A DNA stretch of 64,000 nt from Candidatus Peribacteraceae bacterium (GTDB taxonomy: Bacteria > Patescibacteriota > Gracilibacteria > Peribacterales > Peribacteraceae): the NCBI GenBank assembly GCA_028711345.1, contig JAQTSK010000002.1, positions 228 through 64,227 of the forward strand, read 5' to 3'. The notes beneath the pieces were generated by a model, which saw nothing but the letters and a program-made list of their open reading frames with translations, did no database searches and was not told the DNA's origin. Each line of letters begins with the position of its first letter. Positions within the stretch are counted from its first letter, which is position 1. A program made the position numbers and the translations under genes. Positions 2,020-28,040 of the stretch are shown piece after piece.

Positions 2020-2943
2020 ATGCTCACCGTCAAACGCCTGACCAAGTCCTTCGGAGACACCAAGGCAGTCGATGATCTGTCATTCAGCATCACCGCCGGC
2101 GAGATCGTCGGGTTCTTAGGCCCCAACGGCGCCGGCAAGACGACGACGATGCGCCTCATTGCCGGCTACCTGTCTCCCGACAGCGGCACGATCATCATTG
2201 ATGACAAGCAGGTCGGTGAAGAGGGGAGCGATGCACGGAGATACATCGGTTATCTTCCCGAGAACAATCCTCTCTACAAAGACATGCTCGTTTCCGAGTT
2301 CCTGACGCTCTCGGCGGATCTCAAGAACATCCCCGCCGACAAGCGCCGCGCCGCGTTCGACTTCGCCGTGAGCGCCGTGGACATCGGCGATGTGTTCTAC
2401 CGGCCGGTCGGGGAGTTATCCAAGGGGTACAAGCAGCGCATCGGCATGGCGGTGGCGCTGCTCCATCGTCCGTCCATTCTCATTCTCGACGAGCCGACCG
2501 AGGGGCTGGACCCGAACCAGCGGACGGAGATCCGGTCCCTCATCAAATCATTGGCCAAGGAGCGCACGATTCTGCTCAGTACGCACGTCATGCAGGAAGC
2601 ATCGGCGCTCTGCAGTCGCATCCTGATCATCCATCACGGCAAGCTGGTGGCGGACGGCACTCCCAAGGAATTGGCGGCGAAAGCGCAGCAGCAGAATATC
2701 CTGATCGTGGAGCTGGAAGGCAAAGGGATTGAAGCCGCACTGAAGTCCATGCCGGGTGTCTCCCGCATCGCGCTCGATTCGCTCGGCGGCGATCGTATCC
2801 GCGCCACGCTCATCACCGCCGGCGATCAGCTCCAGCCGCAGGTGCTTGCGTTGTCCGCGCAGCACGGCTGGAAGGTCTGGCGCCTCGCCGAGGAGGAGCA
2901 CAAGCTGGAGGACATCTTCCACTCCCTTACCACTCACGCCTGA
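2020..2943 (+). CDS. ABC transporter ATP-binding protein (ABC-2 type, GldA-like)
   Basis: Walker A GPNGAGKTT, signature LSKGYKQR, Walker B ILILDEP. Start moved to ATG 2020 (MLTVKRLTKSFG); the upstream track extension looks non-coding. Confidence 0.9.
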   Translation: MLTVKRLTKSFGDTKAVDDLSFSITAGEIVGFLGPNGAGKTTTMRLIAGYLSPDSGTIIIDDKQVGEEGSDARRYIGYLPENNPLYKDMLVSEFLTLSADLKNIPADKRRAAFDFAVSAVDIGDVFYRPVGELSKGYKQRIGMAVALLHRPSILILDEPTEGLDPNQRTEIRSLIKSLAKERTILLSTHVMQEASALCSRILIIHHGKLVADGTPKELAAKAQQQNILIVELEGKGIEAALKSMPGVSRIALDSLGGDRIRATLITAGDQLQPQVLALSAQHGWKVWRLAEEEHKLEDIFHSLTTHA

Positions 2944-2948
2944 TTCCC

Positions 2949-5207: not shown

Positions 5208-5234
5208 TACGAGATTAACTTGAATGTTATCGTA

Positions 5235-5279
5235 GCTGCGGTTCGAAAACCGCAGCGGCGGCGATTTTCGAATCGCCGC
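5235..5279. repeat. REP-like tandem hairpins
   Basis: GCTGCGGTT-CGAA-AACCGCAGC and GCGGCGATT-TTCG-AATCGCCGC, bracketed by CGTAGC..GCTACGG. Confidence 0.8.
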
Positions 5280-5340
5280 TACGGAGATAAAAGATTCGAA
5301 TCAGGTTAATTCCGTATGACAGGAGTAGAATTGCCGCACT

Positions 5341-5580
5341 ATGAAAAACTCCTGCCAAAGTTGCTTGATGCCGCTTGCCAAAGATCCGGGGAAGAGCGGA
5401 TCGGATCAGTACTGCAGTTACTGCTTCAAAGACGGGAAGCTGGCCTACGAAGGGAATGATCTGAAAGAGTTCCAGCGACGGTGCTTCGAAGGCATGACTG
5501 CCGGTGGCATGGGCAGGTTCAAAGCCCGATTCTTCACCTGGCTGGTTCGCTTCGCGCCGCGGTGGAGAAGGAAGCAGTAG
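5341..5580 (+). CDS. putative zinc-ribbon domain protein
   Basis: CQSC..17 aa..CSYC motif in a 79-aa ORF. Flanked by related hairpin repeats. Confidence 0.55.
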   Translation: MKNSCQSCLMPLAKDPGKSGSDQYCSYCFKDGKLAYEGNDLKEFQRRCFEGMTAGGMGRFKARFFTWLVRFAPRWRRKQ

Positions 5581-5820
5581 GGGGAGCGACTGAGGTTCCA
5601 TCTTTGCTTGTCGGGTTGTGCGGAGCACATTTTCAGTTGAGCCAGCCACGTCGTTCGTTATTGGTGAGTGATACGAAATTAATCTGAATTGTACCGTAGC
5701 GGCGATTCGACAATCGCCCGAAGTGAGCAATCTGATTTCGCAGAACATCGAAAAAAGTATGACTTCTTTGTTAGGGAACTTTCCTTGCTTTTTCAGAGGT
5801 TCCTAAGGAAAAAGGATCGT

Positions 5821-6156
5821 TCAGAAGGACTGAGAAAAATACCCCAACTCCGCAAGTATCGTACCACTTGCTCCCACAATGAGATTAAAAATAAAAGCAG
5901 ACAGTATCCCGATTCTGATGAACTTCCTGCCTTTCTTTTTCGCTATTTCACTTCCGAAGAGTAGTGGTAAAAAGAAGATACAGTTAATAACTAAATGTAT
6001 GAGATAGATGCCCCATCGAGGAAGGTGTGGCATTTCTGCCATGCTGACAAAACTCCATACGATTACAAGTACAAGACCCCCCAAAAATCCTATGGAGAAA
6101 TCGAGCACTTTGTTATGAGAGGCCGAAGCAGAAGAAGGAGGAGAAGGGTGCGTCAT
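5821..6156 (-). CDS. hypothetical small membrane protein
   Basis: 111-aa ORF with three hydrophobic segments. AT-richer than its surroundings. Confidence 0.4.
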   Translation of the reverse strand: MTHPSPPSSASASHNKVLDFSIGFLGGLVLVIVWSFVSMAEMPHLPRWGIYLIHLVINCIFFLPLLFGSEIAKKKGRKFIRIGILSAFIFNLIVGASGTILAELGYFSQSF

Positions 6157-6236
6157 AAGAAGGGAGGGAGGAGTGAATTATTATGAGAGATGCTTTATAG
6201 GGTAGTGACGCGGAAGGAGGACACCCCGCCTTGCTT

Positions 6237-6262
6237 GCCACGTCAACGGAGGTTGACGTGGC
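6237..6262. repeat. 11-bp-stem hairpin between the SLH gene and the small membrane protein gene
   Basis: GCCACGTCAAC-GGAG-GTTGACGTGGC. No adjacent T-run on either strand. Confidence 0.7.
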
Positions 6263-6295
6263 CAGACAAGGTTGAAAATGACCTGCCGTCCTCGT

Positions 6296-8422
6296 TCAAC
6301 GACTGGATAAATACTGATAGATGGCAACAGCCACGTCCTGACGGCTGAGTACAGATCCTGGACGCAGAGAAGCTGATCGGCCGGGGAAGAGAGAATACTT
6401 TTTGGCGATACCGGCATATCGGGCAAACCAAGCGTTCGCCGACACATCCGAATACGTATTGGAGGTATTCAGCTGCAATCCGAAGGTGAGAGCGAGCATC
6501 TTGAGGAACTCAGCCGTGTTCACCTGGTCAGCGGGGCGGAACGTGCCGTCCGGATATCCGTTGATGATCCCTTTCTGCGCAGCCGTCATCACGAACTTCG
6601 TGTACCACTGGCCATCGAGAACGTCCGGAAACGTTCCGCTGTTTGCGATGTCGTCAACGGATCCGTACCGTGCGAGGAGAAGGAACTTCGCCGCCTCGGC
6701 ACGATTCACCGGTTGGTCACCTTTGAATTGCCCGTCAGGGAAACCGCCGATGATCGCTCTGCGATAGAGCTCGGCCGCCGCTTTTCCCGAGAGCTGAGTC
6801 ATATCTGTGTCAGGGAAGGGATTGCGGTACGTTTCGATGTTCGTGAGAACCGTGTCTTCGTAGCCTGCGGGTGGGATTTTCCCGTTGGAAGCAGATGTGA
6901 ATGTTGCACTCTTTACGGCTTGCGTTAATAGACTGCTCAGATGAATTTGTAGATTTTGCACAGTCACATTCTCCGAACACGCACTCTGCGAGTGGATAGA
7001 GGTAATCTGATGGAGGGCATCCACATGGATAATGCCGATACCATCCTGCTCGGCTGTGCAGTAGTGGCCACCGGCGTCTTGGTCAGCTTGAATGAGGGCC
7101 TTGGTCGAAAAAAGCACATTCTTTCCGATAGTTTTACCGTCAGTCTCTTTATCGGGTGCATCCACGATGACGTACACCAGGTCGCTCAGATCGGATGGAA
7201 TGGGGAACTGAATTCCCAGCTCTGGCACTGTAAATACGGCAGAAGGTGTAGTAAATTTAAAAGTAGAAAGAATCTGCGGGCTCACATTTTCAAATGTTGA
7301 ATACTGAGCCGCATAGGTTTTACCATCGTGGTAAGTCAGTTGAACAATTTGATTTTTGGCAACAATCAACTTCACCCAATGGATACCATTCGTTGTGATC
7401 GTTGTTCGTGAATCTATTGTACGTCCGGGTCTGCTGAACACAGGCAACAATGCTTCTGCCTCATTGAGGGGCACATTGTAGACATGAATTGCTAAAGAAT
7501 AGTCTTGTCCTCCAACGGGCATAAAAGCGACATTCGTATCGCTTATAGGACCCTTCCAATTATTCGGATATTTTACCTCATAACCATATTGAGTGTTTGA
7601 ATATGTTTTCCAGCCGGCGGTTGGGTCTGCTGGAGAAGCAACAACGCTGAACGCGACTTTATTACTCATCGTGCCCCATGGCTGTGCATAGAGGTGATAT
7701 GCCCCGGGAGTAATGGTGATAGACGAAGGGCACGGCAAGCCGGAATAGGAAGTATCTTTCGTGCAGTAGCTGCCAGAAAGTTTGAATGTGACCACGGTCG
7801 TCGAATCAGTACTGTCGCCGAGGACGACTCCTTTCTGTCCAGCACCGTTTTCGATCCAGAGATTCTTATCTCCTTCGAAGCCACGCAAGTTAAAGCCGTT
7901 GACCGTCACCGTCGATCCGATTTTTGCTGGATTGGGAGAAACACTGCTGATGGAAGGCACGAGAGACTTAACGCATTTTCCGTCAACGCATGTGTTGGTT
8001 GGACACGGAGCCACAAGACAGGCAATTTGCGGACAATCCGTGTCTGTTTTGCACTGGGAAGATGACGAACATTGACGCGCCAGCGCAGGGCATGCGATCG
8101 ACCCGTTGGCCACTCCGCAATGATTCGAGTCATTTGCCGTCAGAGATTGCCAGCCATTGGAACAGGCGCCCCAATCGCATTTCCAACTCGGCGTACAACT
8201 TGCTTTCGTCGTATTGAACGCATTCAGGCAATCCTGTTGATTGCTGAACGTTTGCAAGCCGAGATACATATATGTGCCGCAAAATTGTTTCCGTGTTTGA
8301 CATTGATCGCCTCCGGCAGTATCAAACCAAAATAAATTTGAGCAGGATATTTCCGCAGCAGAAACAGAAAGGGGAATCAGTGCAGCTGTTACGACAGCAA
8401 GACTGAGGAGATAGTTCTTCAT
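6296..8422 (-). CDS. secreted Cys-rich protein with IPT/TIG-like domain and three C-terminal SLH domains
   Basis: Signal peptide MKNYLLSLAVVTAALIPLSVSAAE from ATG 8422. C-terminus has three repeats of the SLH pattern (FPD..W....V......GI..GYPDGTF.P...V.RAE). Confidence 0.8.
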   Translation of the reverse strand: MKNYLLSLAVVTAALIPLSVSAAEISCSNLFWFDTAGGDQCQTRKQFCGTYMYLGLQTFSNQQDCLNAFNTTKASCTPSWKCDWGACSNGWQSLTANDSNHCGVANGSIACPALARQCSSSSQCKTDTDCPQIACLVAPCPTNTCVDGKCVKSLVPSISSVSPNPAKIGSTVTVNGFNLRGFEGDKNLWIENGAGQKGVVLGDSTDSTTVVTFKLSGSYCTKDTSYSGLPCPSSITITPGAYHLYAQPWGTMSNKVAFSVVASPADPTAGWKTYSNTQYGYEVKYPNNWKGPISDTNVAFMPVGGQDYSLAIHVYNVPLNEAEALLPVFSRPGRTIDSRTTITTNGIHWVKLIVAKNQIVQLTYHDGKTYAAQYSTFENVSPQILSTFKFTTPSAVFTVPELGIQFPIPSDLSDLVYVIVDAPDKETDGKTIGKNVLFSTKALIQADQDAGGHYCTAEQDGIGIIHVDALHQITSIHSQSACSENVTVQNLQIHLSSLLTQAVKSATFTSASNGKIPPAGYEDTVLTNIETYRNPFPDTDMTQLSGKAAAELYRRAIIGGFPDGQFKGDQPVNRAEAAKFLLLARYGSVDDIANSGTFPDVLDGQWYTKFVMTAAQKGIINGYPDGTFRPADQVNTAEFLKMLALTFGLQLNTSNTYSDVSANAWFARYAGIAKKYSLFPGRSASLRPGSVLSRQDVAVAIYQYLSSR

Positions 8423-8996
8423 GAGAGATGGGGGGGGAAGGAGAACTTGCACAATAAGCGCATAAGACTTTTGCGCAAGGGTCTGCGAAGAAACGAAGTC
8501 GTCAGGATTGGACCACTCCGGCACTCGTCTGGACTGAAGATGCTCCATAGTGTTTTTGTCTTTGCATTGTCAGACAAGCTCCCGTGGTGAAAGTGATCGT
8601 TTGAGATGAGACGCACAGCGTCTACGGGGTGCGGTGGAGGGGAATCAGGATTATCGCCGCTTCGCAAGCGGGATTGGGAGACTCTTGGATTCTTATTCGG
8701 TCCTTTCCATGAGGAAGGCGGACAAAATGAATCTGTCACGACAGAATGTTATTCTGTGCTGTTTGGTGCACAGTCACTGATTTTGGACATCGCAAAAGAG
8801 GACGGTAGGCATGCATCGACCATGGTATAACCGGGTCATTTTGTTGCGAAAAATAATGGCAAACCGTGGCCTGCCACGCGAAGCGCCTCCGCAGAGGCGC
8901 GAAGTGTGGCGGAGATGATACGAAAAAGTTGGAACCAGCTTGAACAGCGGCTATTTGGATTCGCAGTACCAATCAAAACGATTGAACGTACTCTGT

Positions 8997-9119
8997 TCAT
9001 CGCTCCGATTTCTTCTTCTTCCCCTCTGCGCGAATTTGCCGTCCACGCTTGACGGCATCGCCGTATGCTTTGATGACAGGATTCTTCGGATCCGGTGATG
9101 GGAGAGGAGTGCGCTTCAT
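8997..9119 (-). CDS. hypothetical 40-aa basic peptide coupled to the upstream kinase gene
   Basis: Own translation MKRTPLPSPDPKNPVIKAYGDAVKRGRQIRAEGKKKKSER. Its ATG overlaps the kinase TGA as ATGA (9119-9116). Too short for the track. Confidence 0.2.
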   Translation of the reverse strand: MKRTPLPSPDPKNPVIKAYGDAVKRGRQIRAEGKKKKSER

Positions 9120-9715
9120 GATGACTGAACGTCATTGGCCAGTTCATCAGTAGAGTACTGAATACTCTGCAAAAAGGCAACGAGCCGTGCATGATCCTGA
9201 AAGGAAATATCTGTAAACCGGATAACATCATCGCGATAGGTGCTTTCGTAGAGCTTGATCGCCACTTCCGGATGTTCCTTGGCAATCCAGAGTAATGTCT
9301 GTCGTGATCCTGCATGTGTTCGGTAGAAATGCTTCTCGTCGAATTGGCGTTTCCTCCCCAGGAATGCGTCAAAAGAACGTCCGATGTCGTCGGGAAATAC
9401 GGCAATGATGATCGGCTTCTTCTTCGCCTTTGCAATCTTTCGCATCTTGATGGTCGCACCTTCTATCGAGGAGAGAGTACTATCGAACACAATGCAATGT
9501 CGTTTTTTTAGGTACGTCTCCGCGAATTCGGTCTTTCCCGATGCGCTTCCGCCACAGAGCAAGATGACTTCATTGATGTCCTTGTTTTTCAGTGCTGTCT
9601 CGAATTGTTTGTCTGCAAGTCTCGCAGATTCCCGATGGAATTCTTGCGCTCTCTCCGGCATGTATCCTGCGATTTCTTTCTTCCAATCGTCGATGGAAAT
9701 ATAGGTGACGGACAT
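9116..9715 (-). CDS. zeta-toxin-like / AAA P-loop kinase
   Basis: Walker A LLCGGSASGKTEF. Size and layout resemble zeta-toxin family kinases. Start set at ATG 9715 (MSVTYISIDDW). Confidence 0.55.
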   Translation of the reverse strand: MSVTYISIDDWKKEIAGYMPERAQEFHRESARLADKQFETALKNKDINEVILLCGGSASGKTEFAETYLKKRHCIVFDSTLSSIEGATIKMRKIAKAKKKPIIIAVFPDDIGRSFDAFLGRKRQFDEKHFYRTHAGSRQTLLWIAKEHPEVAIKLYESTYRDDVIRFTDISFQDHARLVAFLQSIQYSTDELANDVQSS

Positions 9716-9854
9716 CGGGGAAAGTGTAGCATGAATGAGCGCCCGAAATGGTTTGCCACGCGAAGCGCAGCCCATGTGCAATTTTGCCCCACTTCGCACT
9801 CCGGGCTACGCGGGGTACACTTCGTTTCTTTGCTTTTGAAGAAAAGTGCTCAAC

Positions 9855-9901
9855 AAAAAAACGGGCGGCTTGCCACGCGAAGCTCCCCGCAGGGAGCGAA
9901 G
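9855..9901 (-). terminator. candidate displaced native ssrA terminator (hairpin + T7)
   Basis: On the minus strand, directly after the orphan tmRNA 3' fragment: CACTTCGC-TCCC..GGGA-GCTTCGCGTGG hairpin region, then CAAGCCGCCCG and TTTTTTT. Confidence 0.3.
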
Positions 9902-9917
9902 TGTGGTGGAGATGCCG
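9902..9917. repeat. attL core (orphan copy of the tmRNA 3' end)
   Basis: TGTGGTGGAGATGCCG, identical to 27639-27654. Confidence 0.7.
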
Positions 9918-10021
9918 TACCCGATTATTACTTGTGGAGATGTGAGTTTAACGAGCTGTAGAATTATTCGATATTTAAGCCAAATTGTAAGCATTAGTAT
10001 CCTGAGGAGTAAAATACGTGT

Positions 10022-11824
10022 ATGGGACGATCACACTCAAAAGCATTTCGTAGGCGGATAAATACAGGAAGACCTTTCACTGCGCCCAGACCCATTGCTG
10101 TTCCCGTTTCGATACCCGCCTCTGTGCGATCTCATATCGATTACATGGCCTACGAACGACTTATGAAGGATTACACCGCAGGTTATAAGGCTGCCGACTT
10201 CCTTCCTCACATATGCAGCCTCTCTGCTGTACGGCTTGGCATGGACGATATATTCAACGCACCAGATGGATACATTATCGCATCTTGGGATATGGCCAAC
10301 ATAACTAAGCATTTTCTTCTCAACGAAGACCCCCATAGCACAAAGCCATTTGGAATCAGAGTTGTAGAGCGTGCATGGATGCTTGAGATTAATCGACCTG
10401 AACCCCATCTTGAGAGAGAAATTGCCACTGGTGGTTGGTGGTTACACTTCATACGCGCTGGTTTCATAAGTGTTAAATATCGAAAGAGGATAAACAGCAT
10501 CTTAGGAAGGGCCATTGTTCTCTTCGGAGAAAGTGAGGCTTTTGGTAAGGATGCAGAGCAAATCGCGTTACGTACTCAGATTGAGACATTATTAGGGATG
10601 CGAATCGAGGAGTTTATAAGAATAGTGTTCGGAATATTCGCAACGCAGTTGAAAAATCATGGAATCATCACCATAAAGAATATCCTTGGGTCATCGGACC
10701 CAAAAATGCAGGAGATTATGGAGCCATCTAAGGTTGCTCGCGTCTTGGAATTGCTTTCCATTACGCCTGAGGGATTCCGAGACTTCGCATCACGCAAGCT
10801 CCCTGCTGGCTTAGATGCTTATTGGCTCAATCCCTTGTTTTCCTATCCTATTATTAAGGAAAAGGATGGAGAACAGATCTTCATTCCCATCACATCTCTG
10901 CTCATGCAGAGGGCTACAACGGGCCTTTATCATATGATTCTAAGAGAACTTGAGAAAAAGGGAGGAAAGGAATCACTCATATTCCGTGATTCGTTCGGCA
11001 AACATATCTTTGAGCCATACGTGGGGCTACATATGGCTCAAGCAATACCCTCAGAGAAGCAAAGAAGGGGTATGAAGTACTGTGACCCCCAGAGACCTTC
11101 ACAGCAGATTAGTGACGTAGATGTTTTGGGGTGGGACGCTGAAGGCATCATTTTTGTAGAAACCACTTTGCTTACAGCTTCTTTGGAAACACAGTTAGCC
11201 GTAAGCACAAAGAGCGTGACGGATTATGTAAGAAAATTATCTGATAAAGTGCGCCAACTGCATAAACATCACAAACACAGCGGACTTATTAAGAAAGATG
11301 TTGGAATATCAGAGGTGCTCCCTCATCACTGCGTATTAGTCACATTTCAAGAGCTTCCGATGCCCAATCTTCTTATCCGTTACCTCCTAGAATTAGAGTT
11401 AAATGGCGAACTAGGCACCGATTTTATCTATCACATCGCCTGCATCGATGATTGGGAGCACCTTTGCTCTTCATCCAAGAAGTATGGTATTCCACTTTCT
11501 CGTCTACTCTCAGAAAAAACAGGCGAGGTTCCTACGGGATATGATCTTATGCAATGGGAATGCATAAAGGATTCCGTATTTGCGAAGATAGAACTAAACA
11601 TGCCAGACCCTGAAAAGGAGAAAGCAGGTAAGAAGCCACCTCAGTGGGATATAACCAATACTGCCTTCTCTGAATTTACGGATTTCCTGATGCGCAGATT
11701 CGGTAAAGAGGCCATCGGTTCTGAGATGCTAGATGAAGCACAGAACCGCATGTGGGTAGAAATGGGTATCGATATCCTCGAAGAGCGCAGAGAGGAGAGG
11801 GCAATGCAGGATGGGCAGAATTGA
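10022..11824 (+). CDS. hypothetical protein, paralog of the next gene; PD-(D/E)xK-like C-terminal half with degenerate catalytic motif
   Basis: ..FGKHIFEPYVG..ISDVDVLGWDAEGIIFVETT.. (11111-11167) aligns with the nuclease core of the convergent neighbour, but has E-T-T in place of E-x-K. An alternative start at ATG 10145 is possible. Confidence 0.55.
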   Translation: MGRSHSKAFRRRINTGRPFTAPRPIAVPVSIPASVRSHIDYMAYERLMKDYTAGYKAADFLPHICSLSAVRLGMDDIFNAPDGYIIASWDMANITKHFLLNEDPHSTKPFGIRVVERAWMLEINRPEPHLEREIATGGWWLHFIRAGFISVKYRKRINSILGRAIVLFGESEAFGKDAEQIALRTQIETLLGMRIEEFIRIVFGIFATQLKNHGIITIKNILGSSDPKMQEIMEPSKVARVLELLSITPEGFRDFASRKLPAGLDAYWLNPLFSYPIIKEKDGEQIFIPITSLLMQRATTGLYHMILRELEKKGGKESLIFRDSFGKHIFEPYVGLHMAQAIPSEKQRRGMKYCDPQRPSQQISDVDVLGWDAEGIIFVETTLLTASLETQLAVSTKSVTDYVRKLSDKVRQLHKHHKHSGLIKKDVGISEVLPHHCVLVTFQELPMPNLLIRYLLELELNGELGTDFIYHIACIDDWEHLCSSSKKYGIPLSRLLSEKTGEVPTGYDLMQWECIKDSVFAKIELNMPDPEKEKAGKKPPQWDITNTAFSEFTDFLMRRFGKEAIGSEMLDEAQNRMWVEMGIDILEERREERAMQDGQN

Positions 11825-11825
11825 T

Positions 11826-13610
11826 CTACTTATGATCGTTATTCATGCCATTCTTAAAGAGCTTCTTTCGAGCTTTTACGATGAGCTTATGCATATGTCT
11901 TCCAACGATCTTATATTTATATATTCGCTTCTTATAGCGCGGGTCGAGAGCTAGAAAATCATTGAGAGATATCAGTCTATCGCGATGTTCTAGGGTGTAA
12001 TCCGATAGCAACTTGTGGAATGGTATTCCCCTGTGAATTGAGTCTTCGAGAGCTAAAAGCTCATCCATTGTCATGGTTATAAGGTTCGGAATGCTTAGCC
12101 TACCCTTGGCCATATCACCACGACCTGTGTCCTGATCTGGCTGGAGCTTTGTCTTAAATTCACGAGCAAGAAACCAGGGATGTAATGCAGAATCGAGATG
12201 AGGATCTCGCACAAAAAGAATGGGGAAAATCCTATCTAAGTCTCGTGGGGCTATGCCATTTACGGATACATCTGTGGAAAGATTCTTAATCGCAGTGGCC
12301 AGTTGTTCTGCCCCCCAAGTATTAACGTACTTCTTCCTTAGCTCTTCTAAATACGCTGCATTATCTGTGCCGTATATCACGTTCAGATTCAAGAACGATG
12401 CCTTGATTTCGAGTATGGCTAGTTGCCGATCTAACTTAAGGCCGATGTCCACATCTCCTGACTGCTGAGGTCGAGACATTTCTACGCCTAGCTTGTTTAC
12501 ACGAGCGCAATATATCTTCTTAAAGAAGAAGTGAGTGTAATCCTCAAAGGCTGCTCCGTAGTATCCGATAAGTTCTTGTGCTGGCTTTTTTAGCTTTTTC
12601 CTAATGATGAAGATTGGCCCAGCGGCCGCTCTTTCTGCGAAGAAAAGAGAATCTAAGATGATACCTCTTCCATCTCTGATACGAAGAATGGGCCTATCAA
12701 GCATTACGCGGGCATCAAATGAACCCGCCTCGCTTAGGGTGGCAACATCGAGACGCTCACCCCAGAAGCCTTTTCGTAATTCTTCAATTGTCTGCGACTC
12801 AAATTCCAGATAAGTTCGAACTGCTGGCTTCATAGAATCCAACACTTCATTTCCTGCGCTGTTTATATCGAAAATGCCATTACTATTCTCTGGCTTAGCG
12901 GCAATCTCTGACAGCGTTTTAAGATAGAAATGCGAAACAAGAAAACTCTTGCAGATGTAGTAGTCATCGATCTCAATTCCAGTCGCTTTGCGAAAATCCT
13001 CTCTGAGGGTCGTATAGTGTTTTTCCAGATATTTCTTTCGACAGAATATGGAATGCCCAAACCCTACCCACATCATAGGGTTAATATGGCCTATATAGCT
13101 ACCCTCATGATTTCTGCGTAATGCAAGCATTAATAACTCCCTCCCTTCATCATCTACTGGCCTCGTCGTTATCTGAGCAAAATCTGTAGTATCTAGCCAA
13201 ATCTTATTAGCAATTAACATTGCCTTAGCAAAGGTCTGCCTGACATCTTGTTTTCTGAACGTTTCCCCGTCCCCTTCGCTATTCTTACACCACAGCAATA
13301 CCCATCTCATAAGCTCCAAAAGTCCAGCCCTCATACAGATCACACTCTTGTTAAAGCCCTCAGATTTTTTCCAAACCAGCTCACATTGCTCCTTTGTGAA
13401 GAACCATTGAAGTATTAGTTTCTGTGTTTCCCTACCGTGATTTTCGGGATCAAGTTCTGGGTTTGATACGAGGAGGTTTAGCCGAGCACACCAAATAAGA
13501 GCATCTGTAAGGCTTAAGGTTTGTAAGCACCGTCTTAGATTATCTATATCTGCACCAACTTCTAAAAATACATCTTCAACGCCTAAGAACGATATTACTT
13601 GCGACGTCAT
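11826..13610 (-). CDS. hypothetical PD-(D/E)xK nuclease-like protein
   Basis: ..YGAAFEDYTHF..SGDVDIGLKLDRQLAILEIKASF.. (12402-12458) fits the D..(D/E)xK restriction-endonuclease-like core. The N-terminal 350 aa have no motif I recognise. Confidence 0.6.
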   Translation of the reverse strand: MTSQVISFLGVEDVFLEVGADIDNLRRCLQTLSLTDALIWCARLNLLVSNPELDPENHGRETQKLILQWFFTKEQCELVWKKSEGFNKSVICMRAGLLELMRWVLLWCKNSEGDGETFRKQDVRQTFAKAMLIANKIWLDTTDFAQITTRPVDDEGRELLMLALRRNHEGSYIGHINPMMWVGFGHSIFCRKKYLEKHYTTLREDFRKATGIEIDDYYICKSFLVSHFYLKTLSEIAAKPENSNGIFDINSAGNEVLDSMKPAVRTYLEFESQTIEELRKGFWGERLDVATLSEAGSFDARVMLDRPILRIRDGRGIILDSLFFAERAAAGPIFIIRKKLKKPAQELIGYYGAAFEDYTHFFFKKIYCARVNKLGVEMSRPQQSGDVDIGLKLDRQLAILEIKASFLNLNVIYGTDNAAYLEELRKKYVNTWGAEQLATAIKNLSTDVSVNGIAPRDLDRIFPILFVRDPHLDSALHPWFLAREFKTKLQPDQDTGRGDMAKGRLSIPNLITMTMDELLALEDSIHRGIPFHKLLSDYTLEHRDRLISLNDFLALDPRYKKRIYKYKIVGRHMHKLIVKARKKLFKNGMNNDHK

Positions 13611-13706
13611 AACATGATTATTTTAGCTTTAAATTATTTTCACATAATGGGAAATTTTTTGTAGTGACCTAAGTATTCTGCTTACCCTACATCAAAAAGA
13701 GCACTT

Positions 13707-14660
13707 GTGGTACATTTCGGATACATGGAAATTGCAATGAAGATGAACGTGGCAGATCACCTGAATCGAACGTTTGAAGCTGCGAAGTGTAGGATTGTGC
13801 TTCAGCGGCTTTTTTCGCTAAACAGAAGTAACAACGGCTCCTTAACCTTCAAGTTTAATCCAGAAACAGATTCGCCGATTTATAAATCGGATACAGTCGA
13901 TTGCCTTCAATCTTTGGCTGATGATGGAATAATAGAACTTCCAAGTTTGGAGAAAAAGAGGCAACGAGTTGGAACGGTTACGATAAAAATTCCGCCTGAC
14001 TTTGATTCGAAGTATCAAGATGCAATAAGGAGATGGCCCCTTTTTCATGATGAACTCTCTTCTCATAAGCAGATGAATTTTGTGTACCAGCAGTTACAAA
14101 ACAAGAGTCGTTTCTTGGGAAAGCAGATTGTGGTCATCGGCAATGGAGACCTTGGAGATGGCAAGGAACTACTGCACATCAATCTGCATCGCGCTCTACT
14201 GTCACTGGAGGCAGATGGGAAAATCTCCATCCATTCCATTCAGGCTATACCTCCTGTTCACTGGGTAGAATTTCCAAACAGCAATCATCGCAAGAAGATG
14301 GTCTACGATTTATTGTACGAAGTGAATGTGCAGGGGAGCACACTCCGCGGCGATAACTACATGCTGGACATGAACAGACTTCTCATCACCTTCGACGACG
14401 GACACACGGCTTCATTCAAGGTTGGAACAGAGTCATACAGATTTTTTGCTCTGTTCGCGCAGGATGGCAAACGTTCAGTATCAAATGAGGAATTGGTATC
14501 CCTGCTGTCTTCAACAACGTATGCCTCTGAGCAGGATATTCGCGATGCGGCCAAAGGGATAAGGTTGAGAGTAAGGAGCAGGGTATTACATGCCAAGAGC
14601 GGCAGCGCTCATGACATCATCCGATATAAAAATCAGATGACCTCGCTCCGGGGAATGTAG
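13707..14660 (+). CDS. hypothetical protein with OmpR/PhoB-like winged-helix C-terminus
   Basis: C-terminal ..FKVGTESYRFFALFAQDGKRSVSNEELVSLL....EQDIRDAAKGIRLRV resembles trans_reg_C wHTH. The track start is GTG; ATG 13725 is an alternative. Confidence 0.45.
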   Translation: MVHFGYMEIAMKMNVADHLNRTFEAAKCRIVLQRLFSLNRSNNGSLTFKFNPETDSPIYKSDTVDCLQSLADDGIIELPSLEKKRQRVGTVTIKIPPDFDSKYQDAIRRWPLFHDELSSHKQMNFVYQQLQNKSRFLGKQIVVIGNGDLGDGKELLHINLHRALLSLEADGKISIHSIQAIPPVHWVEFPNSNHRKKMVYDLLYEVNVQGSTLRGDNYMLDMNRLLITFDDGHTASFKVGTESYRFFALFAQDGKRSVSNEELVSLLSSTTYASEQDIRDAAKGIRLRVRSRVLHAKSGSAHDIIRYKNQMTSLRGM

Positions 14661-14905
14661 TGGTAACTTTTTTGGTAACCGAGTACATAGACGCTTCTAC
14701 TGTTTGCAACTGGGCGTTGTTTTAGTCTGGAACAGTGCAGAAGCGCCAATCATCAAAGGTCACCCGTAAGTTCACTCCTTCGAGTGACTTTGACGCGGTC
14801 ATGTTGGAGATCGTGGAGCTGATTCTGAACTCTGGGCAGAACTCAGATTTAACCGCAGTTGATTCTGGGCGTCCGTAATTTCTCTTTTCTACTTTCTTAC
14901 CCAAT

Positions 14906-15226
14906 ATGTCTATGCATATTTACCCTCTAAAAGCTGGCATGATAATGGATTGGGATACTGAACTCTGTGAAGGCAATATCAAGTATTCAGATGTTGATTA
15001 CTTTCCTAGTTGTGAGTGGGGCCGCGAGATATATACAAATAGACTCTTCGAAAAATCACTGATTTTGCTCGATGAGGAAGATATCTGTGTGTTAGAGGAA
15101 GAATTAAAAGAAGGCTGTTGGGATGAACTCCCGGACTTAGAAAAGTCCCTGAAGGCAATGGTTGATTATGCAAGAAAGAATCCCACACCTGATGGGGATC
15201 ACAATTTTATTTGGATCAACATTTAG
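14906..15226 (+). CDS. hypothetical acidic protein
   Basis: 106-aa ORF in the AT-rich island segment, same orientation as the replication module. Confidence 0.4.
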   Translation: MSMHIYPLKAGMIMDWDTELCEGNIKYSDVDYFPSCEWGREIYTNRLFEKSLILLDEEDICVLEEELKEGCWDELPDLEKSLKAMVDYARKNPTPDGDHNFIWINI

Positions 15227-15247
15227 TACCTCCCCGCATTTCTTTCA

Positions 15248-15484
15248 ATGCTTATGACAACCTTCTCCACCAGCGATCTCTCCATTGCCTCCTATGCGAT
15301 AGCGACGGGTGCAAAGTTGCTCCGCCTTGATCGTTCACAGCCTCGGGCAGTCTTTGTGTTGGAATGTGGTCTGAGCGAGGCCGACATGGTGCATCGGTAC
15401 ATGAATCAGCCGGTGCTGGCGAAGGACTTTGCACTCGCGCAGACCCATCTTAAACACAAGCTTTTCTCCTCTGATCGCGATTAA
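15248..15484 (+). CDS. DUF5659-like small protein
   Basis: ..FSTSDLSIASYAIATGAKLLRLDRSQPRAVFVLE.. matches the pattern of DUF5659 proteins, which are common in phage/plasmid-like elements. Confidence 0.55.
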   Translation: MLMTTFSTSDLSIASYAIATGAKLLRLDRSQPRAVFVLECGLSEADMVHRYMNQPVLAKDFALAQTHLKHKLFSSDRD

Positions 15485-15513
15485 TTCCTGCTTATTCCTT
15501 TTCTATCATTAAA

Positions 15514-17829
15514 ATGGATAATCCAAATGATCTACTGATCCGTGCACTGAACTACCTTGAGATGGGCTGGCCTGTAATTCCGGTGAATCAGAACAAGCGG
15601 CCGCGAATCAGCTCATGGAAAGAGTACCAAGAGCGCATGCCTACTACTGAGGAGGTGACTCGGTGGTTCAATGATCCGGGTGCTGTGGGTATGGCACTGA
15701 TTACAGGGCGTCAATCGGGCACCGTTGTTTTGGATGTCGAAAAGGAAGGCCTAGATGAACTTCAGAGACTAGAAATTCCTCAGACTGTCGTTGCGGTAAG
15801 TGGTGGCGGTGGACGCCATATTTACTTCAAGCATCCGGGTTTTGAAGTGTCGAACATGACAAAGATGGATGGGGTTCCGATGGATATCCGAGGAGATGGG
15901 GGCTACATCATTCTCCCGCCATCGCTGCACGCTTCGGGCAATCATTACTTATGGGCAACCGGACCGGGAGACGTTGAGATTGCCGAAATGCCAACATGGC
16001 TCTTGAAAAGAGTACAAAAAACGGGACTTCCGACTTCCATAGCACCGAATGTCAGCAAGAAAACGAAATTTGATTTCGGCGCGAACGTTCCAGAAGGCTC
16101 CAGAAACACCGAGGCTGCGAAAGCAATCGGAGCAATATTGTGTCGGTTGGAAGAGCAGGAGTTTGATTCCAAGGGGTGGTCACTGGCTGACCAATGGAAT
16201 ACCGCCCACTGTGAACCGCCACTGGAGGAGCAAGAACTGCGCGTCATATTTGAAAGTATCAAGAAGTCTCATATTGAACAGCTACATGACCTATTTGCTG
16301 AGAAAAAGAAACCCAAGGAATCAAAGGCCAAGCGGCTGCTAAATTACGTTGATATTGCAGGCGCTGAGCTGTTTCACAATCAGTCCAATGAACCGTTAAT
16401 GCGAGTCACGGTAAATGGTCATCAGGAAATATTCCGTTGTTCGCATAGAACCGAACGCTGCAAGCGGTACCTGACAAAGTTGTTCTGGGACAACGAAAAA
16501 GCATCGATTAAAGTTAGCGACTTGCAGGAGGCCGCAGATCTACTGGGTGCTCGAGCGTTCCACGATTCCCCAATGAGGGAACTTTCGAACAGAGTCGCTC
16601 GTCACGATGGAGCAATTTTCTATGATTTATCTGATAAAGAATGGAGAGCGGTGCGGATCACTCAGAACGGATGGGAAGTTCTTGCTAACCCTCCGATACT
16701 CTTTGCGCGGGAAGAGCATCAATTGCCTCAGGTCGAACCACTAAAGAGTGGTGGTAATGCCAAGAAGATCCTGGAATATATCAATATTGCTAAGCCCGAG
16801 CATAAGCTCCTGTATCTGGTACAAATCATCTCCTATTTTATCCCCAATATTCCTCATCCCGTAGCGGTATTTCACGGCAAGCCGGGATCAGCCAAGAGTA
16901 CGGCGACGAAAATGACCAAAATGCTGGTAGACCCCTCACAGATGGAAGCATTCACGTTGTCGCGGGATGAAGCGCAAATGGTACAACAACTTTCCCATCA
17001 CTATCTCGGTGCATACGACAATATTGACTATCTGAATCCGGAACAGTCCGATGCCCTTTGCCGTGCCGTAACCGGTGGCGGTTTCTCAAAACGAGCTCTT
17101 TACTCCGATGACGACGATAAGATCTACCACTACCGCAGGTGCATCGTCCTGAACGGCGTAAGCCAAGCCAGCACCAGAACCGACCTTCTGGATCGGAGCA
17201 CCCTCTTTGAGCTTGAGAGGATCCCTGATGATGTTCGCCTTACTGAGCGTGAATTATGGGAAAATTTCAGGAAAGATTTACCCGTTATTCTCGGAGGAGT
17301 TTTTGATGTGATTGCGGAAGCAATGCGGCTGCAACCTACGGTCAAATTAGTCCAACATCCACGTATGGCTGATTTCGCGGAGTGGGGATGCGCTATCGCA
17401 CTCGCCCTTGGCTACACCCAGGAAGAATTCGAGTCGTCGATTAACCTGAATAAGAAGGATCAGCACGAAACTGTTCTGAGCGAGGATGCTGTTGCCTCGT
17501 CTCTACTCAAATTTATGGCTAATCATGGTGAATCATGGCAGGGAACAGCAACAGATCTCCTGATTCACCTAGAAGACAATGGTCTGCGAGGCAGACGCCT
17601 GCCCACTGCGAATGCTCTTTCAAGACGCCTAAACCTCATTGGCTACAACTTGGAAGCCGCAGGCATCAAATTTGAGCGGGGATATAAAGACAACCAGCGC
17701 CTGATTATTCTCACAAAAATACCGTCGGTATCGTCGGAATCAATTCCAGAGAAAAGTGACGACAAGAACCGTACTGACGATACCGACGATGAAAATGGTG
17801 CACTCAAGCGACCTCGGGTTGTTTACTAA
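15514..17829 (+). CDS. bifunctional primase-polymerase (Prim-Pol) / PriCT / P-loop helicase replication protein
   Basis: N-terminal GWPVIPV..KRP...W..GMALITG....VVLDVE..GGGGRHIYF..DIRGDGGYIILPPS. PriCT-like EGSRNTEA...EEQELRVIFESI. Walker A GKPGSAKST. Confidence 0.85.
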   Translation: MDNPNDLLIRALNYLEMGWPVIPVNQNKRPRISSWKEYQERMPTTEEVTRWFNDPGAVGMALITGRQSGTVVLDVEKEGLDELQRLEIPQTVVAVSGGGGRHIYFKHPGFEVSNMTKMDGVPMDIRGDGGYIILPPSLHASGNHYLWATGPGDVEIAEMPTWLLKRVQKTGLPTSIAPNVSKKTKFDFGANVPEGSRNTEAAKAIGAILCRLEEQEFDSKGWSLADQWNTAHCEPPLEEQELRVIFESIKKSHIEQLHDLFAEKKKPKESKAKRLLNYVDIAGAELFHNQSNEPLMRVTVNGHQEIFRCSHRTERCKRYLTKLFWDNEKASIKVSDLQEAADLLGARAFHDSPMRELSNRVARHDGAIFYDLSDKEWRAVRITQNGWEVLANPPILFAREEHQLPQVEPLKSGGNAKKILEYINIAKPEHKLLYLVQIISYFIPNIPHPVAVFHGKPGSAKSTATKMTKMLVDPSQMEAFTLSRDEAQMVQQLSHHYLGAYDNIDYLNPEQSDALCRAVTGGGFSKRALYSDDDDKIYHYRRCIVLNGVSQASTRTDLLDRSTLFELERIPDDVRLTERELWENFRKDLPVILGGVFDVIAEAMRLQPTVKLVQHPRMADFAEWGCAIALALGYTQEEFESSINLNKKDQHETVLSEDAVASSLLKFMANHGESWQGTATDLLIHLEDNGLRGRRLPTANALSRRLNLIGYNLEAAGIKFERGYKDNQRLIILTKIPSVSSESIPEKSDDKNRTDDTDDENGALKRPRVVY

Positions 17830-17952
17830 AATGTTTCCTAGTAATACTGAAATGCACGAATCGACGACAATCCCCCCCCTTTAGGAAAAACGCTTGAATT
17901 GCCAATATAGGCTGTATAATACGAGTTAAAGCCTCTTTCGGCCAATATTAAG

Positions 17953-18183
17953 ATGACGAATCCTTCTCCAAGGCCTCCCCCGATGGAGGGGCTTCTTGAA
18001 CGCTTGCGTCTTATCCGTGGCGAAGCCGAACGGCTCTACTACCTATCAGATATTTTAGGTCGGCAGGGACAGCGCGAAGCGAGCTACAGACAGAAGCGTG
18101 CCGGAGACTTCGCCATGCAGGAGTGGAAGAGGGTGAATGCCCAGTACCGCGCACTGTGGAAGAAACAACGATGTAAGCGCTAG
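17953..18183 (+). CDS. hypothetical small helical protein
   Basis: 76-aa ORF directly upstream of the tyrosine recombinase. Bracketed by GCCAATAT motifs. Confidence 0.35.
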   Translation: MTNPSPRPPPMEGLLERLRLIRGEAERLYYLSDILGRQGQREASYRQKRAGDFAMQEWKRVNAQYRALWKKQRCKR

Positions 18184-18229
18184 TAGAAGCCAATATTGAC
18201 GTTGACTATCTGATGTTCTGAAATAATAA

Positions 18230-19186
18230 TTGTACATATTTTATGAATTTCCCCTCATTTATATGCACAAAGCTCTGCCTAAAGCCCTGGAAACACCAAA
18301 ATACTCACAAAATAATGTTTCGACGGTCGTCTCAGGGGACTTGGAGCGTGTGGTCGCCGCTCTGTTACAGCGGGACGTGAGCAGGAATACCCAGCTCGCC
18401 CTCCGCTCCGACCTCAAGTGTTTTCTTCAGTGGTACGCACAGAAGAACGGAGAGGCGTTCAGATTCCAGCGGGTCGTCATGCGGGACATCACCGATTTCA
18501 GGGATGATCTGAGCAAGACCCTGTCTCCGGCGACCACGAACCGCAGACTCGTGAACGTGCGCCTGTTCCTCCAAGAGGCCGTGGAACTCGACGTGATCCC
18601 CAAGAATCCGGCAAAAAGGGTGAAACAAGTGGCAACGCAGTCTCTCGCTTCCAAGGGACTGACCAAGCAGGAGGCACGGAGATTGATGAAGGAGGTCGAG
18701 ATACGGGCGAATCTTAGGGACTTGGCGGCTGTGAACCTGATGTTGATGGCCGGACTGCGAGCGGGAGAGGTAGTGGCGTTGACTGTGCAGGACGTAGAGA
18801 TGAGCGAACGCAGGGGGACACTGACGATACGGCGTGCCAAGGGGAACAAGACAAGGAGAGTCCCCATCCATCGTGCCCTACGGGCTATCTTGGAGGCGTA
18901 CATCGACCACTACAAGCCAACGGACAAGCTCCTGCTCGGAGAGCGCGGAGCCATTCAGCAGCTTGCGCTCAATGAGATTGTGCGAAAGTACGCGAAGCTC
19001 GCGGGGGTCACGGCGACACCACACACGCTGAGGCATTCATGGGCGTATCAGTATCTCGAACAAAACCCCGGCGACATCGTAGGGCTGGCACAGCTCTTGG
19101 GGCATTCATCCATTAGTACAACGCAAATTTACGTCCAGCATCGGATGGAACAATTGGAGCAGAGGGTGGAGGCGGTGAGCTTCTGA
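18230..19186 (+). CDS. tyrosine recombinase (XerC/D-phage integrase family)
   Basis: SAM-like N-domain. Catalytic region ..GLRAGEV..HTLRHSWAYQYLE..LLGHSSISTTQIYVQH. The start may be ATG 18263. Confidence 0.85.
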   Translation: MYIFYEFPLIYMHKALPKALETPKYSQNNVSTVVSGDLERVVAALLQRDVSRNTQLALRSDLKCFLQWYAQKNGEAFRFQRVVMRDITDFRDDLSKTLSPATTNRRLVNVRLFLQEAVELDVIPKNPAKRVKQVATQSLASKGLTKQEARRLMKEVEIRANLRDLAAVNLMLMAGLRAGEVVALTVQDVEMSERRGTLTIRRAKGNKTRRVPIHRALRAILEAYIDHYKPTDKLLLGERGAIQQLALNEIVRKYAKLAGVTATPHTLRHSWAYQYLEQNPGDIVGLAQLLGHSSISTTQIYVQHRMEQLEQRVEAVSF

Positions 19187-19295
19187 AGGTTCCTCATCAA
19201 AAGTGCGAATCCCTCGACACCAAGGACACACGACCATGCCGCTTCCATGCTACAAAGCGTTGACGTTCACAGATGAACACGAAGAGCGATCCTAC

Positions 19296-20420
19296 CTACA
19301 GAATGCTCACGTCGAGCAACTGCTTCACTGCCCCGACCACCTTCTTCTTTTCGACGCCGAGGAGAGATGCGACCGTAGTTTCCATTTCCTGACGTGCATT
19401 CTTCACTTCCTTTTTTCGTTGCTTGGGATCTTCGCCTGGTTTTTCTTGTCTGCCAAAGACCGCATGGTACTTCTCCACTGCTTGTTGCACTTTGGCGCGG
19501 ACAACTGCTGAGACCTCGGTGGGTGCTGACGTTTGTGGGCGTGGCTGCTCGGCTGCGGGAGCGACGAGCGGTGTTGTCACTGCCTTCACTGTCGTAGGTA
19601 TAGGAGCAGGCGGAGTTTTGACGGAAACCGGAGGAGTGGGGGCTGTTGGCGCTACGGCTTGCGGTTTGGGTGCTACAGATTTGGGGAGTGTCACCGGGGT
19701 CGGCAGTGTTGAGAGCAGGACACCGGGAAGTTGGCCTCTCAGTTTCTGCAAAAACTCATGGGCTCGCGCTTCGCCACCGTTAACAGCTGCAACGAAGAGC
19801 GCGACTTGCTCACTCTTGCGTGTGGCCAAGTAGAAAATGACCTGATCGGAGTACCCCACGCGCCTCAGCATCTCCCACTCGGTTTGCTGCAACGTGAACA
19901 TTTCCGCTGCCAGTGCTTTATCCAGTGCAGCAAAATCAGAGAAGCGCATTTTGGCTATGTCCGCCGCAACCGGAGAAGGGGGCAGCACTATCTCATCCTT
20001 CTTGCTCGCTTGCGCTGCCAATGGTTGCAGTTGCGTCTGCTCACGACCAGCCGTGTCACCTTTGGCTATGATCGGCGGTGGGGTGGGCGCCGCAGGCGTG
20101 GATACGGGAGAAGGAGCGGTCTTCTGAGGTAAAGGCGGCTTAGAGGTCATTGCAGATGGACGCTTCTGCCCCGGGACATGCGCGGGTCCTTGATGCTGAG
20201 CAGGAGTCGACTTGCCACCTTCATGTTGCCCACCCGATTTCTGCTCCGGTTTCCTTGCCACGGGTTGCCCTTTCTGCGCTGCGGCGACTGTGGCAATGGC
20301 GTCTTTCGTGTCAGTGCGCATGGCATCCGCTGGCTTGGGCGTTGACGCCATGGGTGCCACGCGTGTTTCTTCTCGCGGTCTTTCGGTTTCCCTGCGGATA
20401 GCGGTGTGGTGCTCGCACAT
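19296..20420 (-). CDS. hypothetical Pro/Ala-rich protein with a small central globular segment
   Basis: Long P/A/T/K low-complexity arms flank ..[45 protein letters not shown]... First ATG at 20420, 11 nt after the giant ORF stop. Confidence 0.5.
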   Translation of the reverse strand: MCEHHTAIRRETERPREETRVAPMASTPKPADAMRTDTKDAIATVAAAQKGQPVARKPEQKSGGQHEGGKSTPAQHQGPAHVPGQKRPSAMTSKPPLPQKTAPSPVSTPAAPTPPPIIAKGDTAGREQTQLQPLAAQASKKDEIVLPPSPVAADIAKMRFSDFAALDKALAAEMFTLQQTEWEMLRRVGYSDQVIFYLATRKSEQVALFVAAVNGGEARAHEFLQKLRGQLPGVLLSTLPTPVTLPKSVAPKPQAVAPTAPTPPVSVKTPPAPIPTTVKAVTTPLVAPAAEQPRPQTSAPTEVSAVVRAKVQQAVEKYHAVFGRQEKPGEDPKQRKKEVKNARQEMETTVASLLGVEKKKVVGAVKQLLDVSIL

Positions 20421-20431
20421 AGTGAGAAAGG

Positions 20432-27860: not shown

Positions 27861-28040
27861 ATCAGACCTTAGGCAGTGACGAGAGAGGGCAAGCGAACAG
27901 AGTTCACGAGGTCCTCCACGTATGCCATGAAATTGCTTTTGGCAATTATGGTTTGCTCCAAGTGGGTAACGGGAACCAGAGCAATCCCGGATCGAGACGC
28001 AGTCGACGCATTGTCACGCTGTCGAAAGCCTGTCATCCCC
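27641..28040 (-). ncRNA. ssrA: tmRNA (transfer-messenger RNA)
   Basis: 5' GGGGATGACAGGCTTTCGACAGCG.. and 3' ..GGACCCGGGTTCGACTCCCGGCATCTCCACCA. The acceptor stem GGGGATG/CATCTCC carries the G3:U alanine identity pair. Internal tag frame ends ..LVTA-TAA at 27869-27871. Confidence 0.9.

Follow-up and report, generated by a model that had tools for sequence, protein, structure and literature searches.

Two convergent, distantly homologous GapS1-like proteins as candidate defence nucleases on an integrative element of Candidatus Peribacteraceae

GAPS1, described by Mahata et al. in connection with GMT islands, is a single-protein defence system with a C-terminal PD-(D/E)xK domain, in which D313A and K328A lead to loss of defence and which the T7 capsid protein Gp10 triggers, with dormancy as the outcome (10.1101/2023.03.28.534373). 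Another defence nuclease, Upx, is a monomeric dual-nuclease protein of 1,272 amino acids (aa) that carries a canonical and a non-canonical (D-x-R) site, the second of which is housed in a minimal fold of two strands that has no relation to the C-terminal domain of the protein (PMC13099982). Genomes of the candidate phyla radiation (CPR) are reported to seldom encode CRISPR-Cas (PMC6509639), and one survey suggests that their low defence-system counts may mask systems beyond current detection (PMC12259885). In this study, we report the computational analysis of two open reading frames (ORFs), ORF1 and ORF2, from a Candidatus Peribacteraceae metagenome-assembled genome (MAG; Peregrinibacteriota, CPR), which lie in a 64,000-nucleotide stretch of contig JAQTSK010000002.1 (the window) and are annotated in the MAG as 'hypothetical protein' (PHZ00_00450 and PHZ00_00455). 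We consider it rather probable that they are two stacked defence nucleases of the GapS1-like, single-protein type, which are low in G+C and form part of the cargo of a CPR integrative element. An earlier reading made from the letters of the window (the sequence-only reading) had described them as two ~600-aa ORFs placed tail-to-tail one nucleotide apart, and this was confirmed by their coordinates and by the single base, 11825, that separates the stop codon of ORF1 (TGA) from the reverse-strand stop codon of ORF2 (TAG).

10022-11824, + strand: ORF1, 600 aa, GapS1-like and divergent; N-terminal part helical, core of PD-(D/E)xK type
10847-11446, + strand: nuclease-like core of ORF1, residues 276-475
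11012-11014, + strand: codon of ORF1 E331
11120-11122, + strand: codon of ORF1 D367
11159-11167, + strand: ORF1 E380-T381-T382, in place of E-x-K
11826-13610, - strand: ORF2, 594 aa, typical of its large ~600-aa family; N-terminal part helical, PD-(D/E)xK core complete
12069-12692, - strand: nuclease core of ORF2, residues 307-514
12543-12545, - strand: codon of ORF2 E356
12447-12449, - strand: codon of ORF2 D388
12402-12410, - strand: ORF2 E401-I402-K403, the canonical E-x-K

Remote GapS1 homology and the active sites

The sole significant family for either protein was NCBIfam NF047931 (antiphage_GapS1), which matched ORF1 at an E-value of 1.8e-13 and 50.2 bits (residues 175-498 on model positions 119-437 of 455) and ORF2 at 7.3e-9 and 35.0 bits (residues 199-447 on positions 124-354 of 455). 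Both proteins miss the curated cut-off of 320 bits, as do ten sampled representatives of the ORF2 family, all ten of which match the same model at 20-57 bits. Scans of ORF1, ORF2 and the neighbouring ORF3 with Pfam, PADLOC 2.0 and PHROGs gave nothing usable (the PADLOC models produced zero matches to ORF1 or ORF2 at E<=1), and searches of PDB sequences returned no match. Thus, the statement of the sequence-only reading that no motif could be recognised in the N-terminal parts holds for Pfam, PADLOC and PHROGs but not for NCBIfam, which sees both proteins as remote GapS1 relatives. Its suggestion of a module novel in kind is not supported for the same reason, GAPS1 being the single-protein system to which both are remotely related.

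The two proteins resemble GAPS1 in several respects: a helical N-terminal part and, nearer the C-terminus, a PD-(D/E)xK phosphodiesterase core are joined in one polypeptide, significant HMM (hidden Markov model) similarity extends over about 70% of the model, and the genes occur as mobile-island cargo and in defence contexts. They differ from GAPS1 in length (~600 aa against a model of 455 positions, the first ~120 of which are unmatched) and in the hosts of their family, which are environmental phyla and CPR, whereas GAPS1 is found mostly in Klebsiella, Vibrio and E. coli. Further differences are that ORF1 lacks the lysine essential in GAPS1 and that two copies stand tail-to-tail in the window. 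We conclude that the ~600-aa proteins constitute a large uncharacterised sister family of GapS1, with ORF1 as a further, rare and divergent branch.

In ORF2, D388 and K403 are 15 residues apart, the same spacing as between D313 and K328 of GAPS1, and by arithmetic on the HMM coordinates the two pairs would correspond. The correspondence rests on these coordinates because no GapS1 sequence was retrieved for alignment; when the best-scoring relative served as a tblastn query to look for a genuine GapS1 gene on plasmids, nothing matched. At the same positions ORF1 has D367 and, in place of the lysine, T382.

ORF1 and ORF2 were aligned with each other by three approaches. BLASTP gave 23% identity over 179 aa (E 8e-4); profile-profile comparison with hhalign placed ORF1 158-411 on ORF2 179-429 with a probability of 94.7% and an E-value of 5.7e-8 over 236 columns; and the ORF2-family HMM, with filters off, scored ORF1 at 25.5 bits (E 6e-8 in a set of 258 proteins). 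The similarity of the C-terminal halves that had been seen by eye was thereby borne out, although it is weak. A joint alignment of the ORF1 and ORF2 families holds only 19 invariant columns, among them (in ORF1 numbering) P276-I277, G283, G326, F330-E331-x-Y333, D367 and E380. Judged by these alignments, the two are true but very distant homologues. ORF2 is 30-33% identical to relatives in other phyla against about 19-23% to ORF1, and therefore the two are not the product of a recent duplication.

Among 118 full-length representatives of the ORF2 family, E356 is kept in 110, D388 in 117, E401 in 115 and K403 in 116, whereas T382 is invariant in the four ORF1-type sequences, all of which keep E331, D367 and E380. 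The contrast drawn earlier between D...E-x-K and E-T-T is therefore real, and so is a PD-(D/E)xK-type core in both proteins with the canonical lysine missing from one. 'Degenerate' is nevertheless too strong a word for ORF1, in which the lysine alone is replaced and the metal-binding acids are retained. Nor is the label 'inactive' supported, since the three acids are among the 19 columns invariant in both families, and since the same change from lysine to threonine (E-I-T) has arisen independently in two ORF2-type members, P0072 (locus L021, 8001-9677) and P0127 (locus L022, 1220-3007), both of which persist as solo genes, the former in a dense defence island. Other active-site variants were also observed in the ORF2 family, namely Q-x-K for E-x-K in three representatives and serine for the aspartate in one.

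ORF1 as a decaying pseudogene was considered and rejected: the gene is intact, identity among four lineages amounts to 63-80%, and the N-terminus is conserved. The GenBank version of the protein has 553 aa and starts at Met48, the additional part of the longer version being encoded by 10022-10162 of the window. The 600-aa reading is probably the correct one because residues 17-47 (RPFTxP..., IDYxAYER) are conserved among homologues of 63-80% identity; in addition, the ATG at 10022 is preceded by a GAGGAG at a distance of 12 nt.

The AlphaFold model of ORF2 (predicted local distance difference test score, pLDDT, 79; predicted template modelling score, pTM, 0.84) consists of an all-helical N-terminal region of ~300 residues, followed by the nuclease core and a tail of helices. 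D388 and E401-x-K403 are on strands predicted at 387-393 and 396-403, and a preceding helix bears E356. The model of ORF1 is poor (pLDDT 56), with values of about 74-86 only near residues 300-350 and 370-380. In both models the core runs beta-beta-alpha-alpha-beta-beta-beta-alpha-beta-alpha-beta. ORF2 has the alpha-beta-beta-beta-alpha-beta core and the E/D...D...E-x-K residues that define the PD-(D/E)xK superfamily, and ORF1 has the topology with E331, D367, E380 and threonine for the lysine. Foldseek searches of the PDB, a check proposed in the sequence-only reading, returned PD-(D/E)xK nucleases as top matches for both proteins: Upx (9wuf), Cdn1, McrC, Nt.BspD6I and Can2 for ORF2, where nearly all leading matches belong to the superfamily, and Can2 (E 4.5e-4), Nt.BspD6I, the small subunit of R.BspD6I, Cdn1 and Bax1 for ORF1. 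Against viral structures, Foldseek found nothing significant.

Upx is the best structural match of ORF2 (E 1.1e-3, probability 1.0, 514 columns), and shares with it a large, mostly helical build and a canonical D...E-x-K core, but the TM-score is 0.26 when normalised to the query and 0.16 when normalised to the target, with a root-mean-square deviation of 12 Å. ORF1 and ORF2 are not members of the Upx group, being ~600 aa in length against ~1,270 aa in three domains with two nuclease sites. No PADLOC model matched them, in a library in which the presence of an Upx model was not established. The pairing of a canonical with a non-canonical site in one system offers a loose, conceptual parallel to ORF2 and ORF1, which differ from the two sites of Upx in being full-length homologues of each other. 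We regard the resemblance as no more than a lead. The nuclease domain of Can2, Card1 and Cdn1, in which a sensor domain gates an effector nuclease, provides the top match of the ORF1 model and matches ORF2 as well; here, in contrast, there is no CARF domain and no cyclic-oligoadenylate system nearby, and the alignment is confined to the core (TM about 0.17-0.24).

Distribution of the family and conservation of the pair

A word-indexed search yielded 9 relatives of ORF2, which understates the family and made an exhaustive profile search necessary; this recovered 2,549 cluster representatives at E<=1e-3 and 404 at E<=1e-30; the majority are full-length and ~600 aa long. None of ten sampled representatives has a functional name (two are 'hypothetical protein' and eight nameless). 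The word-indexed search found 4 relatives of ORF1, and by that measure the ORF1-type branch is rare and divergent, with four lineages: the window, L001/L020, L002 and L005. Pattern-based scans with both family profiles detected no relative in viral contigs.

ORF2-type genes were solo at all of the ~20 loci inspected (L003, L006-L019, L021-L025 and two P0006 contigs). An unfiltered HMM search revealed no cryptic second paralogue at those with retrievable DNA; for the two P0006 contigs the solo status was read from gene lists. The following genes or elements were found at loci of solo members:

L003: beside SIR2 and a 1,211-aa TIR protein
L007: beside a Dsr1-like protein with TIR
L009: type IIG restriction-modification (R-M) enzyme, abutting, and PDC-M30A
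L010: PDC-S01
L021 (P0072): dense defence island with HsdR, caspase-like protease, AbiEi/AbiEii, PIN, integrase and NERD
L025: Mrr, PDDEXK_13, Nmad2 and DUF3800
Further context: helicase, methyltransferase, PIN and LexA-like genes beside conjugation genes
L023: conjugative replicon
L024: phage-like region

These neighbourhoods are a classic defence-island and mobile-element signature. Two of the loci hold further genes of interest. L007 encodes a 1,099-aa protein (3664-6960) directly upstream of the solo member. Its C-terminal 960 residues are matched by PADLOC Dsr1 (E 1.5e-146), and at its N-terminus it has TIR_2 where SIR2 is normal for Dsr1, an apparent effector swap. In L014, from a Planctomycetales MAG, a 1,455-aa ORF (2581-6945) without a match in Pfam or PADLOC ends just where the solo family gene, which has the same orientation, begins, and may be an unknown defence gene or partner.

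The sequence-only reading had regarded the two ORFs as a pair whose conservation in other genomes could be looked for. A convergent pair was found again only in L002, where the ends overlap by 20 nt, ORF1 is 63% and ORF2 72% identical, and the pair lies downstream of a large serine recombinase. L001, in contrast, carries an intact 590-aa ORF1-type gene (73-74% identity) without ORF2, followed by an unrelated 268-aa gene, ParB, an rve integrase, two methyltransferases and a weak terminase-like gene. Together with the ~20 solo ORF2-type loci, this does not support a conserved pair. L005 ends before the position of ORF2 would be visible, which leaves three ORF1 loci informative for pairing. Two further candidates were discarded: L020 as an independent locus, which is the same element as L001, and L004 as a second island context, which is 100% identical to window 13522-23247.

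In both L001 and L005, DNA homology to the window begins only 15-17 nt upstream of the ATG of ORF1 (15 nt in L001). Because the homology starts so close to the gene, ORF1 looks like a cassette that moves as a unit. L002 is the most divergent of the ORF1 lineages, and the pair is therefore probably ancestral, with ORF2 lost in L001.

Weighing the readings

In the reading we favour, the helical N-terminal region of each protein would be a sensor, fused to a PD-(D/E)xK phosphodiesterase effector. By analogy with GAPS1, each protein would be auto-inhibited until a phage protein is sensed; sensing would switch the nuclease on, and the infected cell would be arrested or the phage nucleic acid degraded. 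ORF1 and ORF2 would act as two stacked sensors of different specificity, each under a promoter of its own in view of their convergent arrangement, and ORF1 would be a low-activity or alternative-chemistry variant. Independent action of the two appears the most likely arrangement. Defence, which the sequence-only reading had also proposed, is the best interpretation of the remote GapS1 homology and of the defence-island and mobile-element context of the relatives.

Several points weigh against this. Both proteins lie far under the GapS1 cut-off, so that function is transferred over a large distance, and for the ~600-aa family as a whole the defence function is carried over from GAPS1. PADLOC 2.0 and PHROGs are silent on both proteins, the fold matches have low TM-scores (0.13-0.26), and the model of ORF1 is of poor quality. 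The lysine equivalent to the one replaced in ORF1 is essential in GAPS1, and an autonomous ORF1 therefore needs explaining. Finally, the pair is kept convergent and abutting in L002 and its linkage is probably ancestral, as a functional pair would predict too.

The main alternative, which we hold to be unlikely, is an obligate two-component system in which ORF2 is catalytic and ORF1 a pseudo-nuclease sensor, scaffold or inhibitor, a split version of a homo-oligomeric GapS1-like ancestor. It would account for the geometry shared with L002, for the probable ancestral state of the pair implied by the outgroup position of L002 among the ORF1 lineages, and for a threonine invariant in ORF1-type proteins where nearly all ORF2-type members have lysine. 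That GAPS1 cannot do without the equivalent lysine also speaks in its favour. PD-(D/E)xK enzymes are commonly dimeric, and heterodimeric precedents exist, of which R.BspD6I is among the fold matches. In R.BspD6I/Nt.BspD6I two different PD-(D/E)xK subunits cooperate, and its ~600-aa large subunit and its small subunit both appear among the (weak) matches, but its subunits are very unequal in size and it is an R-M system with methyltransferases, which are absent here. Other observations speak against dependence of one protein on the other: the L001/L020 lineage maintains its ORF1-type gene without ORF2, about 20 ORF2-type genes and both E-x-T variants stand alone, ORF1 still has its three acids, and convergent transcription offers no obvious co-regulation. 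The informative ORF1 loci, moreover, number only three. A more specific version, in which an ancient duplication gave rise to a GapS1-like heteromeric immune complex where ORF1 binds metal or nucleic acid, senses the phage and licenses the nuclease of ORF2, seems to us doubtful in about the same degree. If true, a family of which only single-protein systems are known so far would gain its first two-subunit version.

We find it improbable that the two proteins form a modification-dependent (type IV-like) or other DNA-targeting restriction pair that acts directly on foreign DNA, without a protein trigger and without a methyltransferase. McrC and Nt.BspD6I/R.BspD6I are among the fold matches, the island contains no methyltransferase gene, and one relative abuts a type IIG R-M gene. 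However, these matches in fold are weak, with TM-scores of about 0.2 and E-values of 0.005-0.4, the sole significant sequence kin is GapS1, a system with a capsid-protein trigger and dormancy as its outcome, and the Pfam scan found no recognisable DNA-modification reader domain.

The sequence-only reading had also joined a third gene to the pair as a winged helix-turn-helix (wHTH) partner:

13707-14660, + strand: ORF3, 317 aa, an orphan protein

The OmpR-like winged helix attributed to ORF3 was not recovered: Pfam, including Trans_reg_C, gave no match to the whole protein at E<=1 or to the isolated C-terminal 100 aa at E<=10, there was no PDB sequence, NCBIfam or PHROGs match, and BLASTP against an OmpR sequence produced no alignment. 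Among 5.8 billion sequences the only homologue was an identical copy from the same island, and no homologue was seen beside another family member; ORF3 is missing from L001 and L005, L002 being uninformative as it ends within ORF2. A cryptic wHTH may be present in ORF3, but a role as partner and the three-gene module are not supported, and the gene more probably belongs to the backbone or cargo of the island than to the ORF1/ORF2 unit.

An addiction or toxin-antitoxin-like module, with ORF2 as toxin, ORF1 as decoy or antitoxin and ORF3 as wHTH regulator stabilising the island, is very improbable: the genes are adjacent, ORF2 and ORF3 are divergent and the block sits on a mobile island, but ORF3 has neither a detectable DNA-binding domain nor a homologue at L001 or L005, members of the family are normally solo and hence not intrinsically lethal without a partner, and, in place of the small co-directional bicistron with conserved pairing of a type II toxin-antitoxin locus, two convergent genes of ~600 aa each with unconserved pairing were found. 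Antitoxins of 600 aa would not fit a known pattern, and nothing in the analysis indicates the addiction arrangement suggested earlier.

The island and its meaning for CPR defence

The remaining features of the block and of the island to its right are:

13611-13706, no strand: ORF2/ORF3 divergent intergenic region, 96 bp, presumed promoter region of ORF2
Right of ORF3: a 106-aa ORF, island context
15248-15484: DUF5659 gene, ahead of the Prim-Pol gene
15514-17829, + strand: Prim-Pol/PriCT_1 replication protein of the island
Between the Prim-Pol/PriCT_1 gene and the integrase: a 76-aa ORF
18230-19186, + strand: tyrosine integrase of the island
27641-28040, - strand: transfer-messenger RNA (tmRNA) gene (Rfam RF00023, 106.6 bits)

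The tyrosine integrase and the Prim-Pol/PriCT_1 gene identify the setting as an integrative, self-replicating element. The G+C content of the three-ORF block is 0.438, against 0.495 in the rest of the island (14661-19186) and 0.55-0.58 in the flanks, so the block is AT-richer than the island, as had been claimed. Its 'attL-proximal' position, on the other hand, could not be confirmed: a search for attachment (att)-type direct repeats common to the integrase end and the left part of the island returned only 10-11-mers at chance level. The tmRNA gene is not evident as the integration site either, lying 8.4 kb from the integrase. Sites found in a promoter and terminator scan of 9700-15000 were no more numerous than in shuffled sequence; the promoter of ORF2 is presumed to be housed in 13611-13706, where a strong consensus site was not found.

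Several side observations were made around the island. A hairpin repeat of ~50 nt occurs at 8867-8917 and 9866-9914, with a partial third copy at 9749-9768; the two full copies are ~1 kb apart and bracket a P-loop gene, and the second precedes the ORF1 start by ~110 nt. The repeat folds most stably on the + strand (-33.5 and -33.7 kcal/mol, z about -4), with a conserved outer stem (GCCACGC/GUGUGGC) and GAA bulges and an inner stem that varies by compensatory changes (GCGCCUC/GAGGCGC against GCUCCC/GGGAGC). No other copy was found in the window and no Rfam family matched; the repeat could be a cassette-boundary or recombination site, a repetitive extragenic palindromic (REP)-like element or a regulatory RNA. 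The 227-aa P-loop protein (9116-9799, - strand), directly left of ORF1 on the opposite strand, has weak AAA_33, zeta-toxin and DndF-like matches (E 2e-4 to 8e-3) and may be another small defence or toxin cargo; its mechanical GTG start is probably too far upstream and carries the gene into the hairpin repeat region.

Further left, a 750-aa protein with C-terminal SLH domains is encoded at 6296-8548 (- strand), and beyond the integrase on the right are ORFs of 389 and 1,718 aa at 19296-25588 (- strand). Short repeats ~13.6 kb apart are common to both sides (6271/19830 and 6569/20268), and suggest related C-terminal domains flanking the island and not att sites. The tag peptide predicted by ARAGORN for the tmRNA is unusually long (AKSNFMAYVEDLVNSVRLPSLVTA), and a mechanical 612-aa ORF (26022-27860, + strand) overlaps the tmRNA gene. 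No tRNA genes were detected across the whole 64 kb.

If the reading of two stacked GapS1-like nucleases is correct, ORF1 and ORF2 would add defence cargo to a CPR integrative element, in a group whose antiviral repertoire is poorly understood. The lysine-to-threonine lineage, consisting of ORF1 and the two independent solo cases, is a natural experiment on the dispensability of the canonical lysine. Beyond this locus, the analysis connects GAPS1, a defence protein validated by experiment, with a large family of ~600-aa proteins that is entirely unnamed. The family spans Planctomycetota, Myxococcota, Omnitrophota, Binatia, CPR and others in thousands of clusters and, because it is consistently found on mobile elements, often beside known defence genes, is a good candidate for an anti-phage system that is widespread in the environment and missed by current tools.

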